From Bacteroidia bacterium (GTDB lineage Bacteria > Bacteroidota > Bacteroidia > CAIKAF01): 64,000 bases of DNA. Positions within the stretch are counted from its first letter, which is position 1. Each line of letters begins with the position of its first letter. Below the pieces are notes generated by a model, which worked only from the letters and a program-made list of their open reading frames with translations, had not been told where the DNA came from and ran no database searches. The position numbers were made by a program, and so were the translations under genes. This document shows, piece after piece, positions 29,595-39,904 of the stretch. The DNA is taken from positions 48,141 through 112,140 of the forward strand of contig JAUHWY010000001.1 in the NCBI GenBank assembly GCA_030427255.1, read 5' to 3'.

Positions 29595-29820
29595 CTTTTC
29601 CAGACGCTTCGGTCAGGATTTTAGAACCTGCCGCTACGTGCTGAGGCTTAGGTACTGAGGCTTAGGTACTGAGGCTTAGGTACTGACGCTTAGGTACTGA
29701 CGCTTAGGTGCTGACGCTTACGGTCTGCATCCCTGAGTCAGCATCTTTGATTCAGGGTTTATAACCCCTATGCTTCGGTCAAATCTCAAGCATCTTGTTT
29801 TGACCATAGCGTCAGGAGTT
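29595..29820. repeat. REP/BIME-like cluster: CCTGAC-GCTTCG-GTCAGG palindromes plus a ~6.5-copy 14-bp tandem array (CTGAGGCTTAGGTA, 29637-29723)
   Basis: CAGACGCTTCGGTCAGG at 29601-29617 and GACCATAGCGTCAGG at 29801-29815. The tandem units are seen directly in the sequence. Confidence 0.6.
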
Positions 29821-31339: not shown

Positions 31340-31665
31340 CCTACTGAGACAGTTGATACGTTGCGTTTTCAAGACGAAGTCCCCGACCGAAGCGTCAGGG
31401 AAGCAGTCCCTGACCGAAGCGTCAGGGAAGCAGTCCCTGACCCAAGCGTCAGGGAAGCAGTCCCTGACCGAAGCGTCAGGGGTTTAAGGCGCAGGCAAAT
31501 AGAAAGGCCTCTGACGCTTCGGTCAGGACAGGCCGGAGTTTACTAGTTGTAAATGAGGACCCTGAGATTTGCCCATAACGCAGACCCTGGCGTTCCTGTC
31601 AGGGTTTATAATCCCGACCGCAGCGTCAGGGCAGGATTGCCGTCAGAATAGCATCGCATCAACAG
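31340..31665. repeat. REP/BIME-like composite cluster with a 4-copy 27-bp tandem array (GACCGAAGCGTCAGGGAAGCAGTCCCT, 31385-31483)
   Basis: Tandem units seen directly. The 3' half (31520-31660) is homologous to 51840-51990, with a shared ...CAGAATAGC terminus. Confidence 0.6.
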
Positions 31666-33111: not shown

Positions 33112-33185
33112 GGTCCCATAGCTCAGCTGGATAGAGCAACTGCCTTCTAAGCAGTAGGTCTCAGGTTCGAATCCTGATGGGACTA
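33112..33185 (+). tRNA. tRNA-Arg (anticodon TCT)
   Basis: Acceptor GGTCCCA/TGGGACT, D-arm GCTC/GAGC, anticodon stem ACTGC/GCAGT with loop CTTCTAA, T-arm TCAGG-TTCGAAT-CCTGA. Confidence 0.9.
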
Positions 33186-33443
33186 CTTTTGTTTTCTGTA
33201 AATTGCTGATTTACAGGTATTGGGAAACTTGCCTTTCTGATTTGTAGACACATTTGTAGACACATTTTCGGGAATTGCTCCAATTTGCGCTACTTGCTGC
33301 CGGCTCGTGTTGCTCTTTTTTATGGTGTCGGTTTAGTTGGCTACCGGCATCCAATCGGTTTTCCCTTGTCGGGTGCATACTCGGTGCCGGTCGCTATTTC
33401 TCCCTACTTCTTCTGTAATGTAATCTTTATGGAGGTAGGCTAT

Positions 33444-34454
33444 TCAATTGCAAAGTCCTTTTATCATTTCGTAAGCATCAGCGAATCCTAGCTCTCCAGC
33501 TTTACTCCAGTCCCAACAAGCTCCGTTTTTGTCTCCGAGATTGTATTTTGAGACACCTCTGTTGAAATAAGCATCTTGATACCCAGGGTCTAGTTCTATA
33601 GCCTTGTTATAATCTGCTATTGCTCCTCTGGAGTCTTCGAGCCTCTCCTTTGCCGCACCTCTGTTGTGATAAGCTTCTTTATACCCAGGGTCTAGTTCTA
33701 TTGCCTTATTACAGTCTGAAATAGCTCCTCTATAGTCTCCGAGATTGTACTTTGACGCACCTCTGTTGTAATAAGCTTTTTTATACCCAGGGTCAAGTTC
33801 TATTGCCTTGTTATAATCTGCTATTGCTCCTTTATAATCTCCGAGGCTTTCCTTTGCCGTACCTCTCATGAAATAAGCGTTTTCATGCCCAGGGTCTAGC
33901 TCTATTGCCTTATTACCGTCTGAAATAGCTCCTCTATAGTCTCCGAGAGTGTACTTTGCTATACCTCTGCTGTAATAAGCGGCTACATAGGAAGGGTTTA
34001 GCTCTATAGCCTTGTTAAAGTCTGCTATTGCTCCTCTGGAGTCTCCAAGTTTGCCCTTTGCCCCACCTCTTATGAAATAAGCGTCTACATACAAAGGGGC
34101 ACGCTCTATTGCCTTATTACAGTCTGAAATAGCTCCTCTATAGTCTCCGAGATTGTACTTTGACGCACCTCTGTGTTCATAAGCTTCTAAATACCCAGGG
34201 TCTAGTTCTATAGCCTTGTTATAATCTGCTATTGCTCCTCTAAAGTCTTCAAGCCTCTCCTTTGCCCTACCTCTTATGAAATAAGCACCTTTATCCCCAG
34301 GGTCTAGTTCTATAGCCTTGTTAAAGTCTGCTATTGCTCCTCTATTGTCTCCGAGATTGTACTTTGCCAGACCTCTGTCAAGGTATTCTTCCGCAGTCTG
34401 ACTAAATACATTGCTACTCCAAAAAAGCAAAAAAATAAAAAATACGTTTTTCAT
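33444..34454 (-). CDS. Secreted TPR-repeat protein (nine near-identical 34-aa TPR units)
   Basis: Signal peptide and a repeated ...GAIADYNKAIELDPGY...AYFxRG... unit. The DNA is internally repetitive. Confidence 0.8.
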   Translation of the reverse strand: MKNVFFIFLLFWSSNVFSQTAEEYLDRGLAKYNLGDNRGAIADFNKAIELDPGDKGAYFIRGRAKERLEDFRGAIADYNKAIELDPGYLEAYEHRGASKYNLGDYRGAISDCNKAIERAPLYVDAYFIRGGAKGKLGDSRGAIADFNKAIELNPSYVAAYYSRGIAKYTLGDYRGAISDGNKAIELDPGHENAYFMRGTAKESLGDYKGAIADYNKAIELDPGYKKAYYNRGASKYNLGDYRGAISDCNKAIELDPGYKEAYHNRGAAKERLEDSRGAIADYNKAIELDPGYQDAYFNRGVSKYNLGDKNGACWDWSKAGELGFADAYEMIKGLCN

Positions 34455-34845: not shown

Positions 34846-35021
34846 TTTCCGTTACTTTGGTTTGTGTGGGTGTACGTTACCGGGAATGGGTTGTTTCAAA
34901 ATAAATAGCCCAATGATTGACTTTTCCCCTCTACTTGAACGGTGAATAACGCTCATTCAATCTTTAGGCTTGGCCTGCCAAAAATAGGAAATTCCTAGAT
35001 TTAATTAAATGCTTTGGAGCT

Positions 35022-35453
35022 ATGGATAAATTAACAGACGATTGGGTTCAGCTTACAGACGGTCGGGAACCGATTTACTTTTACCTTGTCGAGGAACATG
35101 TTACTACCTTTGGAAAAGATGAGGGTAGGAATGAGCCCATTAGTTACGCTAAAGAATTTAATGGACCCAATTTGCGAAAGTGCAAAGAAGATGCAGAAGC
35201 ATACTATTGGGAAAGGTTAGAGGGCTTAGAAAAGGCCGGTTCCTACTTTTTGCCATTTGCAAGCCATTCAAATTTTGAGTTTGGCAAAAACGCTGCATTT
35301 TCTATTTATCTATCTTTAGTTGAGTACTATGATGAAGACGATTTTTTCCTTCACACTATTTTGGGGGATGATGAAGAGGAAATGGTCGAGGCTAGGGAAG
35401 CAGAAGCGTACATACTTAGCGAAAGGGAGGATGAAGAGGATGAAGAGTTCTAG
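35022..35453 (+). CDS. Highly acidic 143-aa protein with a poly-Asp/Glu C-terminal tail (ends EREDEEDEEF); the only plus-strand island gene
   Basis: ORF flanked by 22-bp direct repeats CGGTGAATAACGCTCATTCAAT (34940-34961 and 35515-35536). Confidence 0.5.
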   Translation: MDKLTDDWVQLTDGREPIYFYLVEEHVTTFGKDEGRNEPISYAKEFNGPNLRKCKEDAEAYYWERLEGLEKAGSYFLPFASHSNFEFGKNAAFSIYLSLVEYYDEDDFFLHTILGDDEEEMVEAREAEAYILSEREDEEDEEF

Positions 35454-35531
35454 CTTTTTTCTAAAATAGCACATAGGTAGGTCCGGTTTTTGGTTGTTTC
35501 CCCCCACTAGTAAGCGGTGAATAACGCTCAT

Positions 35532-36482
35532 TCAATAGCTCGAAGAGCTCGCCCAATGGTTGGCCATTTTCGCATCCTTTAGGCTTGGGAAACAAATCGC
35601 TCGGAGCTCGTTTCTTATTTCGTTTGATGTTTGCGCCCAATGCACTAAGCCGGCATCCTGCAAACGGTTGTTTAGCTTGGTGCGCTCCCTTCTGAATTGC
35701 TGTGGGTTTTCCCGTGAAAGGGAAATGAAATACCGGGGGTTGGTCCATTCTTTGTTCCATGTGGCCACCTCGGACCGGGCCTCTTTTTCTTGCGGCACAA
35801 ATAACACCTCGTTTAGGCTTTCCTCTATCTTATGCCTCAACTTAGATAAACGGCTCGGGTTGGCTAAGTCGGCAAAGGTTGAAATACCCATTTGGTTTAG
35901 TTGTCTCATTTTGGAATAATGCCTTTCCCATCGAATGAGCTTTTCCGGGTCCGTATTTTGCACCTCCATCGCTGTTTCTATTTCCTTGGTGTACTGCCTA
36001 CCTTTTGCGTAAAGCTTGTCTCCAAACTCGCTTTTGGTGGCCACTACTCCAAACTTCCGATCGCTTAACATCGCCTCAAATGGTGTGGATTTATGGAGGA
36101 ACGCTCCTTTCAAGATTTCTTGGGCCCTGTGGCTTGTCCGCACGTTCGCCCCTGCTTCTAAGTTCTCTAATTGGATTTCGTGCGGTGAAACGCCCAAATG
36201 GTCGGAAATGGAAATGAGGCCTTCCAAAAGTTGTCGAAAATCCAAGGGCTTCCAGTTCGCCCCACCTTGTTGGTGCTTATGTATGGAGCCGGAAAGGATT
36301 ATTCTTGTGGGGCTGCCGGCAGCAGGGAAAAAGCCCTTGGCCTTCATGGAGCCAAAATAATACTCCTGCCAAGGGCTTATTTCGCCTGTGCGCTCATTCA
36401 CCACCATTTGCCATTCTATGGCCTCGCTTGCTTCTTTAGGAAACGCTAGGGGGTGAATACTAGCTTTTAGAAAGTCTATCAC
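35532..36482 (-). CDS. Putative replication initiation protein, Rep_trans-like (weak)
   Basis: 316 aa; the segment GDKLYAKGRQYTKE...LIRWERHYSK loosely resembles the RIYNKKQE...HLWRVEIELK region of rolling-circle Rep_trans initiators. Context is int/xis/regulator. Confidence 0.35.
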   Translation of the reverse strand: MIDFLKASIHPLAFPKEASEAIEWQMVVNERTGEISPWQEYYFGSMKAKGFFPAAGSPTRIILSGSIHKHQQGGANWKPLDFRQLLEGLISISDHLGVSPHEIQLENLEAGANVRTSHRAQEILKGAFLHKSTPFEAMLSDRKFGVVATKSEFGDKLYAKGRQYTKEIETAMEVQNTDPEKLIRWERHYSKMRQLNQMGISTFADLANPSRLSKLRHKIEESLNEVLFVPQEKEARSEVATWNKEWTNPRYFISLSRENPQQFRRERTKLNNRLQDAGLVHWAQTSNEIRNELRAICFPSLKDAKMANHWASSSSY

Positions 36483-36514: not shown

Positions 36515-36874
36515 TCAAATTGCACCGAAGAGGCCCATTTGTTGGGCCTTTTCTTTTTTATGGCCGTAGTGCTCAACCGGCAAACCGGTTTCTCGCTCCG
36601 TGTCGATTTTGTTCTCTACACGAACAAGCCCTTCTTTTTTGAGCTTGTTTAGGACGCTGCATAAAGAGGACTCTCTAATTTTGAGAACTTCTTGCAATTT
36701 TAACCTTGAAAACGTGGCTTCCGGGAAAGTCCCTAGGAATTGCAAAATTCTCTCTTTATGCTTTAGGTGCGCAAGCTCTCTCGCATAGGTACGGTAAGCT
36801 TCTAGGGAGTTCCGGTGCATCCTGTGGTTTGGGTGCTTAATTCCCCTACCTAGGGTTTGGTTATCGCTCTTCAT
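36515..36874 (-). CDS. Winged-helix DNA-binding transcriptional regulator (119 aa)
   Basis: wHTH-like segment ...RILQFLGTFPEATFSRLKLQEVLKIRESSLCSVLNKLKKEGLVRV...; 4-nt overlap with the xis-like gene. Confidence 0.5.
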   Translation of the reverse strand: MKSDNQTLGRGIKHPNHRMHRNSLEAYRTYARELAHLKHKERILQFLGTFPEATFSRLKLQEVLKIRESSLCSVLNKLKKEGLVRVENKIDTERETGLPVEHYGHKKEKAQQMGLFGAI

Positions 36875-37140
36875 CGCTTGGCCCTCCCTTTTAATTGTTG
36901 TTCAATCTCGGAGCGCAAGAATAGGACCCTTTTCCCCATCCGGTAGCCTTTAATTACTCCCTGCTTTTCCAGTTTGTTAATGGTCGGGAAACTGATTTTG
37001 AATTGTGCCCGGACTTGGTCCCGGGTCAACCACTTTTCAGTTTGTTGGCCGCTTTCGCTTTGGCCTTGTTCTTTGATGTGCTCGTGAATTTCGAGAACGG
37101 CGTTCTCAATAACTCGCAAACGGTTTTCTAGGTTTTGCAT
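36871..37140 (-). CDS. xis: Excisionase/MerR-type HTH DNA-binding protein (Xis-like)
   Basis: LTRDQVRAQFKISFPTINKLEKQGVIKGYRMGKRVLFLRSEI matches the excisionase HTH_17 pattern. Confidence 0.6.
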   Translation of the reverse strand: MQNLENRLRVIENAVLEIHEHIKEQGQSESGQQTEKWLTRDQVRAQFKISFPTINKLEKQGVIKGYRMGKRVLFLRSEIEQQLKGRAKR

Positions 37141-37184
37141 AATTTAAAAATTGATTTAATGCAAAGCTATTACCGCTCAAAGTC

Positions 37185-37237
37185 AGAAACTTAGGAAACT
37201 TAGGGAGGAAAACTTAGGAAACTTAGGAAACTTAGGT
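37185..37237. repeat. Five tandem iteron-like 9-10-bp repeats, (G)AAACTTAGG
   Basis: Seen directly; located between the orf315 stop and the xis start. Confidence 0.65.
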
Positions 37238-37247
37238 TTTGTTTTAT

Positions 37248-38195
37248 TTAGCTAGATAATAGATTGTTTATCTTTATCAAATAGCCCTTATTTTTCTTTA
37301 GTGGTGAAGTTTCTAGTTTTCGCAAAAGTCTAATAACGGTTCTCTCCGTTACGCCCTTACCGCCACCCTCGTAGTTTATTAAATACTCGCCTATTCTGTC
37401 TAAAGCTGCATTATCTTTAACTAAGTCAGAAACTATACCTGCATTACTCTTAATTCCGTCCAATTTTTTAAGGCCTGTTTTCTCTGTCATAAAATCATAC
37501 CCATTCAATTTCAATTCATTTTTGAAATCATAACCAGTAATCCCACAGAACAAAATGCAAAGGTTTTCCTTGCTCCGGCCGCCCCTCAACCATTCAAAAA
37601 ACTTTTCCCATAATCCATCATTTGATTGAGTTTCCGGCTTAGAATCTTCCCTTCCTTCTTTGTCGGGGTCAACCTCATTTGGTCTAGGTACAACTTCCTT
37701 GGGTTCATTATCGGGGGTCCACCTACTAATTGTTATGCCTTGGTCACTACTATTCAAACTATTTTGTAATTCAAAGAATTGCTCCCATTGGTATTGTTGA
37801 CCAAAGCCAAGGGTTTTCTCTAATTCTTTGAGCCTAGCATGGAATAGTTCAAAGTCAACCGCCCTATCATGGCTCCCAAAAAAACTAATGTACTTTTGGG
37901 CCCAATCCTTTTGCCTTTGAATGGCTTTTTGTACCAGTCTCAACCCTTTTTCATTATTGTTTCCATACTTCCCAATTGTGGCCTCTATTTCCTCTCCAAG
38001 CTTCCTTTGCTTTTCGATTATTTCAGCCTCCCAATCGGTGTTCTTATAAATGGGGAGTATCATTTCTTGCCACCAATCTTTGTTGACCCTAGCCACTTTA
38101 AACGGAGCCCGGGTCGGTTTATAATCCTCGGGGTTTAATAGAATGGTCCAACCTTTAGGGGGCCTTTTTAATTTTAACGGTTCCTTCCTTTTCAT
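37248..38195 (-). CDS. Hypothetical island protein (315 aa), translationally coupled to the integrase
   Basis: 4-nt overlap with the int stop; no recognisable domain. Confidence 0.5.
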   Translation of the reverse strand: MKRKEPLKLKRPPKGWTILLNPEDYKPTRAPFKVARVNKDWWQEMILPIYKNTDWEAEIIEKQRKLGEEIEATIGKYGNNNEKGLRLVQKAIQRQKDWAQKYISFFGSHDRAVDFELFHARLKELEKTLGFGQQYQWEQFFELQNSLNSSDQGITISRWTPDNEPKEVVPRPNEVDPDKEGREDSKPETQSNDGLWEKFFEWLRGGRSKENLCILFCGITGYDFKNELKLNGYDFMTEKTGLKKLDGIKSNAGIVSDLVKDNAALDRIGEYLINYEGGGKGVTERTVIRLLRKLETSPLKKNKGYLIKINNLLSS

Positions 38196-39487
38196 ACCTG
38201 TGCGCTTAATTCCTTGTACTTCTCTTCAAAAGTCGCAAGTATCATTTCGCTATGCTCCCTAGTGGTCATTTTGATGTAATTAAGAAACACCTTCTCCGAA
38301 CTGTGCCCGGTTATGGCCATAATACTAATGGCCGGCACTCCCATTTTGTATAAGTTGGTGGCAAAGGATCTCCTAGCTGTATGGGAACTGATAAAGTGAA
38401 ACTTAGGCCTTTTTATTTCCTCAACTTCAAAGCCTCTATTCTTGGTTGCCTCTACAGTTTCTACAATACCGGCAAGCTTCCCAATTTCCTTTATAAGGCT
38501 GTTTAGGCTTTGGTCAGGCATGTATGGCAATTCAAAGTCGTACTTTTCTAGGATTTTCTTGGTAGGTGAAAACAACGGAATTTCCACTTCGCTATCGGTC
38601 TTTTGCGCCTTTATTACTATAAACTTACTGTCTATGATGTGCTTTTTCTTAACTCGCTTAAAGTCGGAAATGCGTAAACCAGTCCAACAACCAAAAAGGA
38701 AAAGGTCCCGGGCTTTCTCGTATCTTGGCAAATGCGAAAGATTGAGGCCTTCCAGTTTCTTTAATTCATCCAAGGAAAGAAACACGCTATGAACCTTCTC
38801 CTTTATTACCTTGAACTTTTTGTCTTTGAAAATTTCGTTCTTTGAAATTCCCTCTTCGTATGCTGCTCGAAGTATTGCCTTAATGTTTTTGATGTGTTTC
38901 CCTATGTTATTTGGAGTAAACCTTTTCCCGGTGTCCCTGCCTAGTCTATCCCTGCCTTTACAATAAGCTACAAAAGAGGCGTACCAAGCCATGTCGAAGT
39001 CCTCAAAACCAATGTTCGGTTGATACTCTTCTAAAAGCTTTTTCGTTTGCTGATAAGAGTTCACAACCGAATTTTGACTTAATGGCTTGCCGGCAGCACT
39101 AAGCCTTAGTTTGTGCCCTTCCATGAAATGGTCCACAAATGCAAAAAAGCTCTTGGGCGCAAGCTTTGATCCGGGTGCTTGTTCTTGTTTTTTAGGGTTT
39201 AGGAGCTCTCTAAACTCGTCAAGGGTTGGCTCTATGCCTAATTGCCCAAAGGGCTTGTAAAGTTCGGCTATTGCTTCCTTATAAGCTTCTAATCGCTCGT
39301 TTTTGTAAAATGCGTCAGGGTCGCTCCTTCTTACCTTTTGCTGTTTCTCGTTCCAGTCCTTTACCAAAACGGACTCTCCTACATTCTTGGTAAGCTTTTT
39401 ATAATCCCAACGAATTACGGCTTGTATTGACGCTTCATCGCCCTTGGTTCTGGGCCTCAAATAAAAGTGCACGGTCATAACTATCAA
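38192..39487 (-). CDS. int: Tyrosine-type site-specific recombinase/integrase
   Basis: C-terminal catalytic region ...HTARRSFATNLYKMGVPAISIMAITGHSSEKVFLNYIK... (R..H..R..Y) and an N-terminal SAM-like domain. Confidence 0.9.
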   Translation of the reverse strand: MIVMTVHFYLRPRTKGDEASIQAVIRWDYKKLTKNVGESVLVKDWNEKQQKVRRSDPDAFYKNERLEAYKEAIAELYKPFGQLGIEPTLDEFRELLNPKKQEQAPGSKLAPKSFFAFVDHFMEGHKLRLSAAGKPLSQNSVVNSYQQTKKLLEEYQPNIGFEDFDMAWYASFVAYCKGRDRLGRDTGKRFTPNNIGKHIKNIKAILRAAYEEGISKNEIFKDKKFKVIKEKVHSVFLSLDELKKLEGLNLSHLPRYEKARDLFLFGCWTGLRISDFKRVKKKHIIDSKFIVIKAQKTDSEVEIPLFSPTKKILEKYDFELPYMPDQSLNSLIKEIGKLAGIVETVEATKNRGFEVEEIKRPKFHFISSHTARRSFATNLYKMGVPAISIMAITGHSSEKVFLNYIKMTTREHSEMILATFEEKYKELSAQV

Positions 39488-39904
39488 ATTGCATAGCTAA
39501 GTTAGCACATTTGAAATTTGTGGACACATTTGTGGACATATTTTCTTTATTTCATTTTACTTTAAAGAGTCTTACTTAATCGATAATCCACTAATTACAA
39601 GGGGTGCAAAACTAAAAGGCCTTTATTCTCAATCCTTTTAAAATTGAAAATACGAATCCTGATGGGATCACTAAGAAAGTCCACCGAAAGCCTTTAATGT
39701 TCCAAACCTTGGGAACTAGAGCATGCTTGCATGTTCATAGTTCCTAAGGTTTGGAACGATTTGTTGCCAAAGGCAGCAAATGGGCTTTCGGAATTCGGAG
39801 CATACAGGATCAGGCACAACTCCTGATGAGAATAGAGCGGTCGGGATTTTGGAAAGTAGCCGCAATCTCTCCCTCATTTCAAAAAGACTTAGAGAATTTT
39901 AAAT

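Follow-up and report, generated by a model that had tools for sequence, protein, structure and literature searches.

Among phage immunity modules, the C repressor of P2 binds direct repeats at Pe, and C and int lie in one operon. The proteins omega (pSM19035), ParG and ParR act on arrays of contiguous 7–10-bp repeats, and the Par system of pSK1 is a further analogue. In the origins of Staphylococcus aureus pathogenicity island (SaPI) and P4 satellites, short 5–8-bp iterons lie just downstream of the initiator gene, and Rep recognizes them through its C-terminal winged-helix domain; in SaPI origins, two opposed iteron sets are placed around an AT-rich centre (PMC9371898). Here, we analyzed a tandem array of 9-bp repeats in a 64,000-nucleotide stretch of contig JAUHWY010000001.1 from a Bacteroidia bacterium (the whole stretch is called the window), in which the array is carried by a 6.5-kb mobile element inserted at tRNA-Arg. 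The element has the order int, orf315, the array, an 89-aa HTH_17 gene ("xis"), a gene for a 119-aa winged helix-turn-helix (wHTH) protein, and orf316 ("Rep-like"), all on the - strand. Comparison with related elements revealed that the array and its layout are kept, and that the unit sequence covaries exclusively with the C-terminal domain of the protein encoded by orf315.

The array occupies 50 nt (37187–37236) and consists of five exact AAACTTAGG units on the + strand, located at 37187–37195, 37196–37204, 37210–37218, 37219–37227, and 37228–37236. The first two units are separated from the other three by a 5-nt break, GAGGA (37205–37209). Read on the gene strand (-), the arrangement is 3+2, with three CCTAAGTTT units (37236–37210), TCCTC (37209–37205), and two further CCTAAGTTT units (37204–37187). 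Tandem Repeats Finder reported a period of 9 and 5.1 copies. The preliminary description of this locus, made from the sequence alone, had placed five repeats of 9–10 bp between the orf315 stop and the xis start. The array is real and lies as described, with the orf315 stop codon (37248–37250) 11 nt upstream and the xis ATG (37140) 47 nt downstream, all on the - strand; the unit is 9 bp and not 10 bp, the leading G being the final base of the preceding unit. In the whole window, AAACTTAGG occurs exactly seven times, far above the 0.94 ± 0.92 copies expected from 100 shuffles, none of which reached seven. The two copies outside the array (38399 and 57563) are both solitary. That at 38399, inside int, was considered as a secondary site and rejected; it is missing from the near-identical loci L003 and L004 and is probably a chance occurrence. 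One-mismatch variants of the unit occur elsewhere in the window at chance-level frequency, which indicates that the array is not the generic low-complexity tract that the preliminary description had allowed for. No open reading frame of at least 50 aa was found over the array. An RNA-level role was also rejected, as the transcript is unstructured (z = 0.28) and neither an Rfam match nor a terminator was found at the array.

Nineteen related metagenome loci (within L001–L020) were collected from the contigs of protein homologues and from a metagenome scan. Among 5.8 billion proteins, there were three homologues of orf316, six of the 89-aa protein, and five of orf315. Two scans of genome contigs, three of viral contigs, and the first scan of metagenome contigs yielded no relatives, and the second metagenome-contig scan gave only three further loci; tblastn searches with orf316 against plasmids and phages, and with the 89-aa protein against phages, gave no match. 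In every related locus that covers the gap between the orf315-like and the 89-aa genes, this gap contains a tandem 9-bp array, and the arrays fall into five types (units given on the gene strand). Type A (the window, L003, L004, L014, L017, and L020) has the unit CCTAAGTTT in a 3+2 layout, which is retained as exact units in all six loci despite substitutions in the flanks. Type B (L006, L009, and L008) has the unit ACTCGAAAA, with the copy number differing among near-identical elements (5+1, 4+1, and 3+1). The layout is 3+1 in type C (L011, unit ACCCCAAAA), in type D (L001, L012, and L013, unit GTCGAAGAA), and in type E (L015, L016, and L018), whose TCTAAR units are TCTAAGTTC, TCTAAATCC, TCTAAACAAGTCC, and TCTAAACTT. 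All five types share the 9-bp period, at least three units followed by exactly one 12–14-nt step, and then one or two units, with all units on one strand and a break of 4–5 nt. In all types, the array begins 0–15 nt past the stop codon of the upstream orf315-family gene and ends 17–21 nt before an (n)AnnTTTG-like box. No type A or type B units were found in loci of other types. The preliminary description had proposed a search of homologous elements for the same repeat: the array is conserved there in position and layout, but its unit sequence is not. An array that is kept while its unit sequence changes is the pattern expected of a site co-evolving with a specific binder. In addition, a solitary extra type-B unit, ACTCGAAA, is present at position 2061 of L006 and 658 of L009, 52 nt upstream of the array and within the sequence that encodes the C-terminal domain; either a distal site or a chance occurrence could explain it.

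Pairwise protein comparisons and sliding-window DNA identity across the loci served as a natural swap test of which protein follows the unit type. L003 (type A), L006 and L008 (type B), and L016 (type E) share one backbone, with identities of 99–100% for the integrase, 95–97% for the N-terminal part of Orf315, 93–98% for the wHTH protein, and 99–100% for the Rep-like protein; the C-terminal domains of Orf315 on this backbone are 31–46% identical between types. Across the loci, the C-terminal part of Orf315 is 29–46% identical between types, and within types it reaches 93–96% (A), 98% (B), 77% (E), and 49% (D). The N-terminal part is 80–97% identical across mixed A, B, and E loci. L014 presents the converse case: its N-terminal part is only 33–37% identical to the others, including those of type A, yet it has a type-A C-terminal part (95%) and an identical array. 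The remaining proteins cross the type boundaries. The orf316 product is 100% identical over 226 aa between L003 (A) and L008 (B), and 97–99% identical over its full length between L007 (B) and the window or L003 (A). The wHTH protein is 98% identical between L003 (A) and L008 (B), and 59% identical, with its central region rewritten, between the window and L003, both of type A. The 89-aa protein is 100% identical between L015 (E) and the window (A), and 96% identical, four residues apart, between L001 (D) and L011 (C). The integrase is 99% identical between L003 (A) and L016 (E), 100% between L016 (E) and L006 (B), and 78% between the window and L003. In the DNA comparison, type E diverges from the window only at approximately 37600–37200 and returns to 98% identity at the array edge, type B diverges from approximately 37620 to 37080, and L014 diverges only upstream of 37650. 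Judged from these identity profiles, the variable block spans the Orf315 domain boundary to the array end. Taken together, the swaps and the identity blocks indicate that the unit type tracks the C-terminal domain of Orf315 and no other protein encoded by the element.

Orf315 (37248..38195, - strand, 315 aa) belongs to no family, and the start of its gene overlaps the int stop. The protein consists of a poorly predicted helical N-terminal part, an acidic and proline-rich linker, and the C-terminal domain, with the split point at a conserved motif, EKFFEWLR (approximately aa 197). The region coding for the C-terminal domain (37248..37613, - strand) covers approximately aa 195–315, starting from LWEKFFEWLR. 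In the AlphaFold2 model of Orf315, built with five available homologues, residues 190–315 form nine short helices and no strands with a predicted local distance difference test (pLDDT) score of 77–91, while the N-terminal part scores below 50 except for a long helix (aa 52–106). The C-terminal domain is basic in every type (isoelectric point 8.9–10.1). No Pfam, NCBIfam, or PHROG match was found for orf315 or its C-terminal domains, and a profile search of the PDB with the C-terminal-domain alignment gave no match; fold searches with the whole Orf315 model returned mostly generic helical matches. Orf315 has no Walker A motif and matches no helicase, primase, or Rep family. That the C-terminal domain binds DNA is an inference. 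In the type C locus (L011, 3–179), the C-terminal end of the upstream protein could not be aligned with the other C-terminal domains and showed a weak match (E = 0.012) to the small-terminase-like GP3_package HTH region.

A candidate sigma-A −7 box, TAGCTTTG, is located at 37162..37169 (- strand), 17 nt past the last unit and 21 nt before the xis ATG. In Bacteroidota, the sigma-A −7 box has the consensus TAnnTTTG and is located at −12 to −5 (PMC9723704). By this consensus, transcription would start near 37157, and the array would extend from approximately −79 to −30, with the proximal unit at approximately −38 to −30. No TTTG was found in the −33 position at canonical spacing upstream of the −7 box. 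In the only promoter that seems plausible for xis-wHTH-rep, the proximal unit would take the place of a −33 element.

The reading that we favor, to which we give an even chance, is that the units are docking sites for the C-terminal domain of Orf315, and that domain and array form an exchangeable cassette controlling the xis-wHTH-rep promoter. Each 9-bp unit would consist of a specific core of approximately 5–6 bp followed by an A/T-rich spacer of 3–4 bp, and Orf315 molecules would assemble on the units in a head-to-tail arrangement. Domain and array would be swapped as one specificity cassette between otherwise near-identical elements, and Orf315 bound at approximately −79 to −30 would control the expression of the excision and replication genes. 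Repression is favored, and each cassette type would then have an "immunity" of its own; the reasons are that orf315 would be co-expressed with int, that the array would cover the −33 region, and that competition between co-resident elements would be expected to select for several specificities on a single backbone. The geometry fits activation equally well. The general idea of the preliminary description, an operator- or iteron-like protein-binding array in the xis promoter region of an integrated island, is retained in this reading; the two partners that it named, the wHTH protein and the Rep-like protein, are not.

Several observations weigh against a docking cassette for Orf315. The DNA coding for the C-terminal domain adjoins the array, and linkage alone would give some covariation. 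Five cassette types were sampled, and the upstream protein of type C is known for 58 aa only. The promoter and the transcription start rest on a consensus and presuppose a Bacteroidota host, and a head-to-tail pitch of 9 bp is unusual for transcription factors. In addition, int-orf315 is co-directional with the xis-wHTH-rep operon across a gap in which no terminator was found, making a simple repressor circuit less tidy. If the proposed pairing holds, the orf315 ORFan family gains a concrete and testable function, and the array marks where control is exerted in a family of tRNA-integrating, circle-forming elements of 4.8–6.5 kb that had not been described before. Nature's own swap, with three domain-and-array cassettes in one near-identical backbone, makes the specificity rules of what may be a new DNA-binding domain testable, and an annotation by proximity is corrected, as the neighboring wHTH and Rep-like genes would not be the partners of the array. 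A further-reaching proposal, which we regard as tentative, is that the C-terminal domain represents an undescribed DNA-reading fold that recognizes cores of approximately 5–6 bp at a 9-bp pitch as a head-to-tail filament. With the array, it would form a plug-in cassette setting the immunity/incompatibility or the origin identity of a new, rare family of integrative-replicative elements in Bacteroidota-like hosts.

The main rival, rather unlikely in our assessment, is that the array is a short-iteron replication origin with Orf315 as the initiator, as in SaPI or P4 satellites; origin and promoter-control roles are not mutually exclusive. As in SaPI, the array directly follows the gene that encodes the covarying domain (PMC9371898), and diversified cassettes would keep related elements from being incompatible with one another. 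An episomal form exists, as terminal overlaps in three metagenome contigs indicate that the element family occurs as free circles of 4.77–5.29 kb (L003, overlap of 141 nt, 4770 bp; L014, 141 nt, 5288 bp; L017, 123 nt, 4770 bp). In these circular contigs, both element ends are joined via an attP flanked by pairs of the arm-type repeat AATGTGTCTACAAATGTGTCTACAAAT. Their attachment (att) core differs from the tRNA-Arg core of the window, and they probably target another site. The array of the window is also flanked by AT-rich stretches (75–80% AT), but the AT-rich flank is missing in type D. The initiator role is further weakened by the lack of a Walker A motif and of any helicase, primase, or Rep family match in Orf315. 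All units share the same orientation and are interrupted by a 4–5-nt break only, and no DnaA box (up to one mismatch) was found within 1.9 kb. The distance between the array and the candidate promoter box is fixed, and the element already encodes a Rep_trans-like candidate, for which the expected origin would be a nick site.

An improbable alternative is that the array is centromere-like or architectural, with Orf315 coating the repeats so that the episome is segregated or so that transcription of int-orf315 is stopped before xis. The short contiguous units without spacers, the gap without a detected terminator between orf315 and xis, and the circular forms are consistent with it, and the long helix predicted at aa 52–106 was proposed as a coiled coil, in a part of the model that is of low confidence. 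No ParA or ParM partner was found in the 6.5-kb element, however, and the all-helical C-terminal domain lacks the strand of a ribbon-helix-helix fold. We consider it similarly improbable that the array is a slippage-prone microsatellite without sequence-specific function, hitch-hiking at a recombination hot spot beside a fast-evolving domain. The variable copy number of the near-identical type B elements would fit this explanation, slippage could explain the perfect identity of the units, and adjacency accounts for some of the covariation. Slippage is harder to reconcile with five unrelated unit sequences that agree in their 9-bp period, in having a single 12–14-nt step, and in their distance to the −7 box, or with six type A loci that hold 3+2 exact units while their flanks carry substitutions.

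It is very improbable that the repeats are sites for the 89-aa protein (36871..37140, - strand), which would either regulate its own gene through them or form a filament there as a recombination directionality factor. This protein matches HTH_17 (E = 8e-5) and TIGR01764 (E = 4e-5), both below the cut-offs of those models, and its gene is the first downstream of the array. Head-to-tail binding to direct repeats is known from excisionases, lambda Xis among them. The 89-aa protein is, however, the same in L015 (TCTAAR) and in the window (CCTAAGTTT), and differs at only four residues between L001 (GTCGAA) and L011 (ACCCCAAAA); moreover, the array lies 2.4–4 kb from the att sites. Arrays as a general trait of HTH_17 genes were rejected, as P0009, a distant relative, and P0008, with 74% identity, both in phage contexts, have none. 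As negative controls for the pairing with orf315, the phage-context xis homologues without an orf315 gene (L010 and L021) were likewise found to have no array. The 74%-identical copy in L010 (4303–4572) lies at the end of a phage-like contig with terminase, ParB_N, and VRR_NUC, and is array-free upstream; it may point to a connection between the islands and a phage, for example a helper phage.

The two partners named in the preliminary description are contradicted by the natural swaps and are scarcely credible. Operators for the 119-aa wHTH protein (36515..36874, - strand) would be in line with its weak MarR-type winged-helix matches and its position in the operon just downstream, but nearly the same protein accompanies CCTAAGTTT in L003 and ACTCGAAAA in L008, and the window and L003 have identical arrays with the presumed recognition region rewritten. 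Iterons for the orf316 product are equally hard to sustain: its catalytic-tyrosine-like motif, aligned to RepD by hhalign, and the circular element forms speak for them, but the protein is unchanged or nearly so across unit types, and its Rep_trans membership is unproven. Rep_trans-type initiators nick a hairpin origin and are not known to bind iteron arrays.

The product of orf316 (35532..36482, - strand, 316 aa) has no match in Pfam, NCBIfam, or PHROGs. A profile search retrieved 1,542 cluster representatives at E below 1e-3, a large family without a Pfam model, in which S66, H68, N76, E109, G111, N113, K156, Y158, K160, R184, and E186 are invariant. The protein has a Rep_trans-like K-x-Y-x-K / R-x-E motif (K-L-Y-A-K-G ... 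R-W-E-R), and hhalign against RepD (PDB chain 4cwe) placed KLY158AKG...RWERH on the catalytic RIYNKK...WRVEIE with a probability of 1.7%. Only three of 153 family members weakly matched Rep_trans (PF02486, E ~0.005), and the AlphaFold2 model (pLDDT 40) was unusable. The label "Rep-like" is, at the motif level, a lead only, and the family (orf316 and P0015–P0164) could represent a tyrosine nuclease or replication initiator branch that has not been described.

The element is bounded by an attL core at 33168..33187 (+ strand), which forms the 3′ end of tRNA-Arg(TCT), and an attR core at 39653..39672 (+ strand) that matches it at 18 of 20 positions. The tyrosine integrase (38192..39487, - strand, 431 aa) has the domains Arm-DNA-bind_5, Phage_int_SAM_5, and Phage_integrase. 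Pairs of ATTTGT(A/G)GACAC lie just inside both element ends and are probably the arm sites of the integrase, with two ATTTGTAGACAC copies on the attL side (33240..33263, + strand) and two ATTTGTGGACAC copies on the attR side (39516..39539, + strand). The integrase was rejected as the binder of the array, as it has these arm-type sites of its own and does not covary with the unit. A second hypervariable block was observed at 36600–36810, in the center of the wHTH gene, where alone the DNA identity falls to 45–65%; the wHTH allele of the window is 59% identical to that of elements that are otherwise 97–99% identical. Compared with its circular relatives, the window copy contains extra cargo, a tetratricopeptide repeat (TPR) protein gene and a gene for a 143-aa acidic protein. 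The TPR gene (33444–34454) contains 102-nt (34-aa) repeats and is missing from the 4.77-kb circular relatives, and its repeats also break the L020 assembly. The 143-aa gene (35022–35453, + strand) is flanked by an exact 22-nt direct repeat, CGGTGAATAACGCTCATTCAAT, at 34940–34961 and 35515–35536; as it is missing from the circular relatives, it looks like an inserted cargo cassette. Just outside attR, the region 39689–39800 contains a 20-nt inverted repeat (39699–39718 and 39738–39757) and matches the Rfam model of Clostridiales-1 RNA below threshold (33 bits, with the gathering score at 48). Two further tandem arrays lie outside the island. One, at 29641–29720, has 5.7 copies of the 14-nt unit CTGACGCTTAGGTA upstream of a cyclopropane-fatty-acid synthase-like gene, and the other, at 31378–31481, has 3.9 copies of a 27-nt unit that includes the palindrome CCCTGAC...GTCAGGG.

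The array and its element were compared with described systems. Excisionase sites are repeats beside the att core that are bound by Xis, whereas 2.4 kb separate this array from attR and 4 kb from attL. Like iteron plasmids of the Rep_3/RepA type, the element has direct repeats near a replication-related operon, and such repeats would be expected to co-evolve with a cognate protein. Its units are 9 bp instead of approximately 17–22 bp in helical phase, however, and follow a 9-bp pitch with one 14-nt step; no DnaA box was found nearby, no Rep_3/RepA family protein was found, and the candidate Rep stays nearly unchanged where the repeats differ. The array shares with those of omega, ParG, and ParR the spacer-free short repeats upstream of promoters, the variable copy number, and the expected cooperative coating, but the 6.5-kb element lacks both a binder with a ribbon-helix-helix signature and a partition ATPase of the ParA/ParM kind. 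The resemblance to SaPI and P4 lies in the short units (with a proposed core of approximately 5–6 bp), in the position of the array directly downstream of a gene with the matching C-terminal domain, in the specificity that differs between related integrative elements, and in the presence of int, xis, and an excised circle. In contrast to the initiators of those satellites, Orf315 lacks helicase and primase domains, and a winged helix was not detected in it. The units all run in one direction, interrupted by a 4–5-nt break, and form no opposed sets; the array abuts a candidate promoter, and the element carries a separate Rep_trans-like gene. As in phage immunity modules, the gene for the proposed binder lies beside the sites and would be co-transcribed with int, the sites would overlap the early promoter of excision and replication genes, and the module is mosaic, being exchanged among close relatives with distinct specificities. 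Proposed binder and sites covary and are exchanged as one module, as in a repressor/operator pair. Unlike those modules, the array comprises four to six contiguous 9-bp units instead of two or three spaced operators, the proposed binder belongs to no known HTH family, and the order is co-directional (int-orf315-array-xis) rather than divergent. At the sequence level, these comparisons suggest that the array is part of a module of a cognate binding domain and its site array on a mobile element, marked by an uncharacterized protein domain and by an unusual head-to-tail layout of 9-bp units in which the phase break is conserved.
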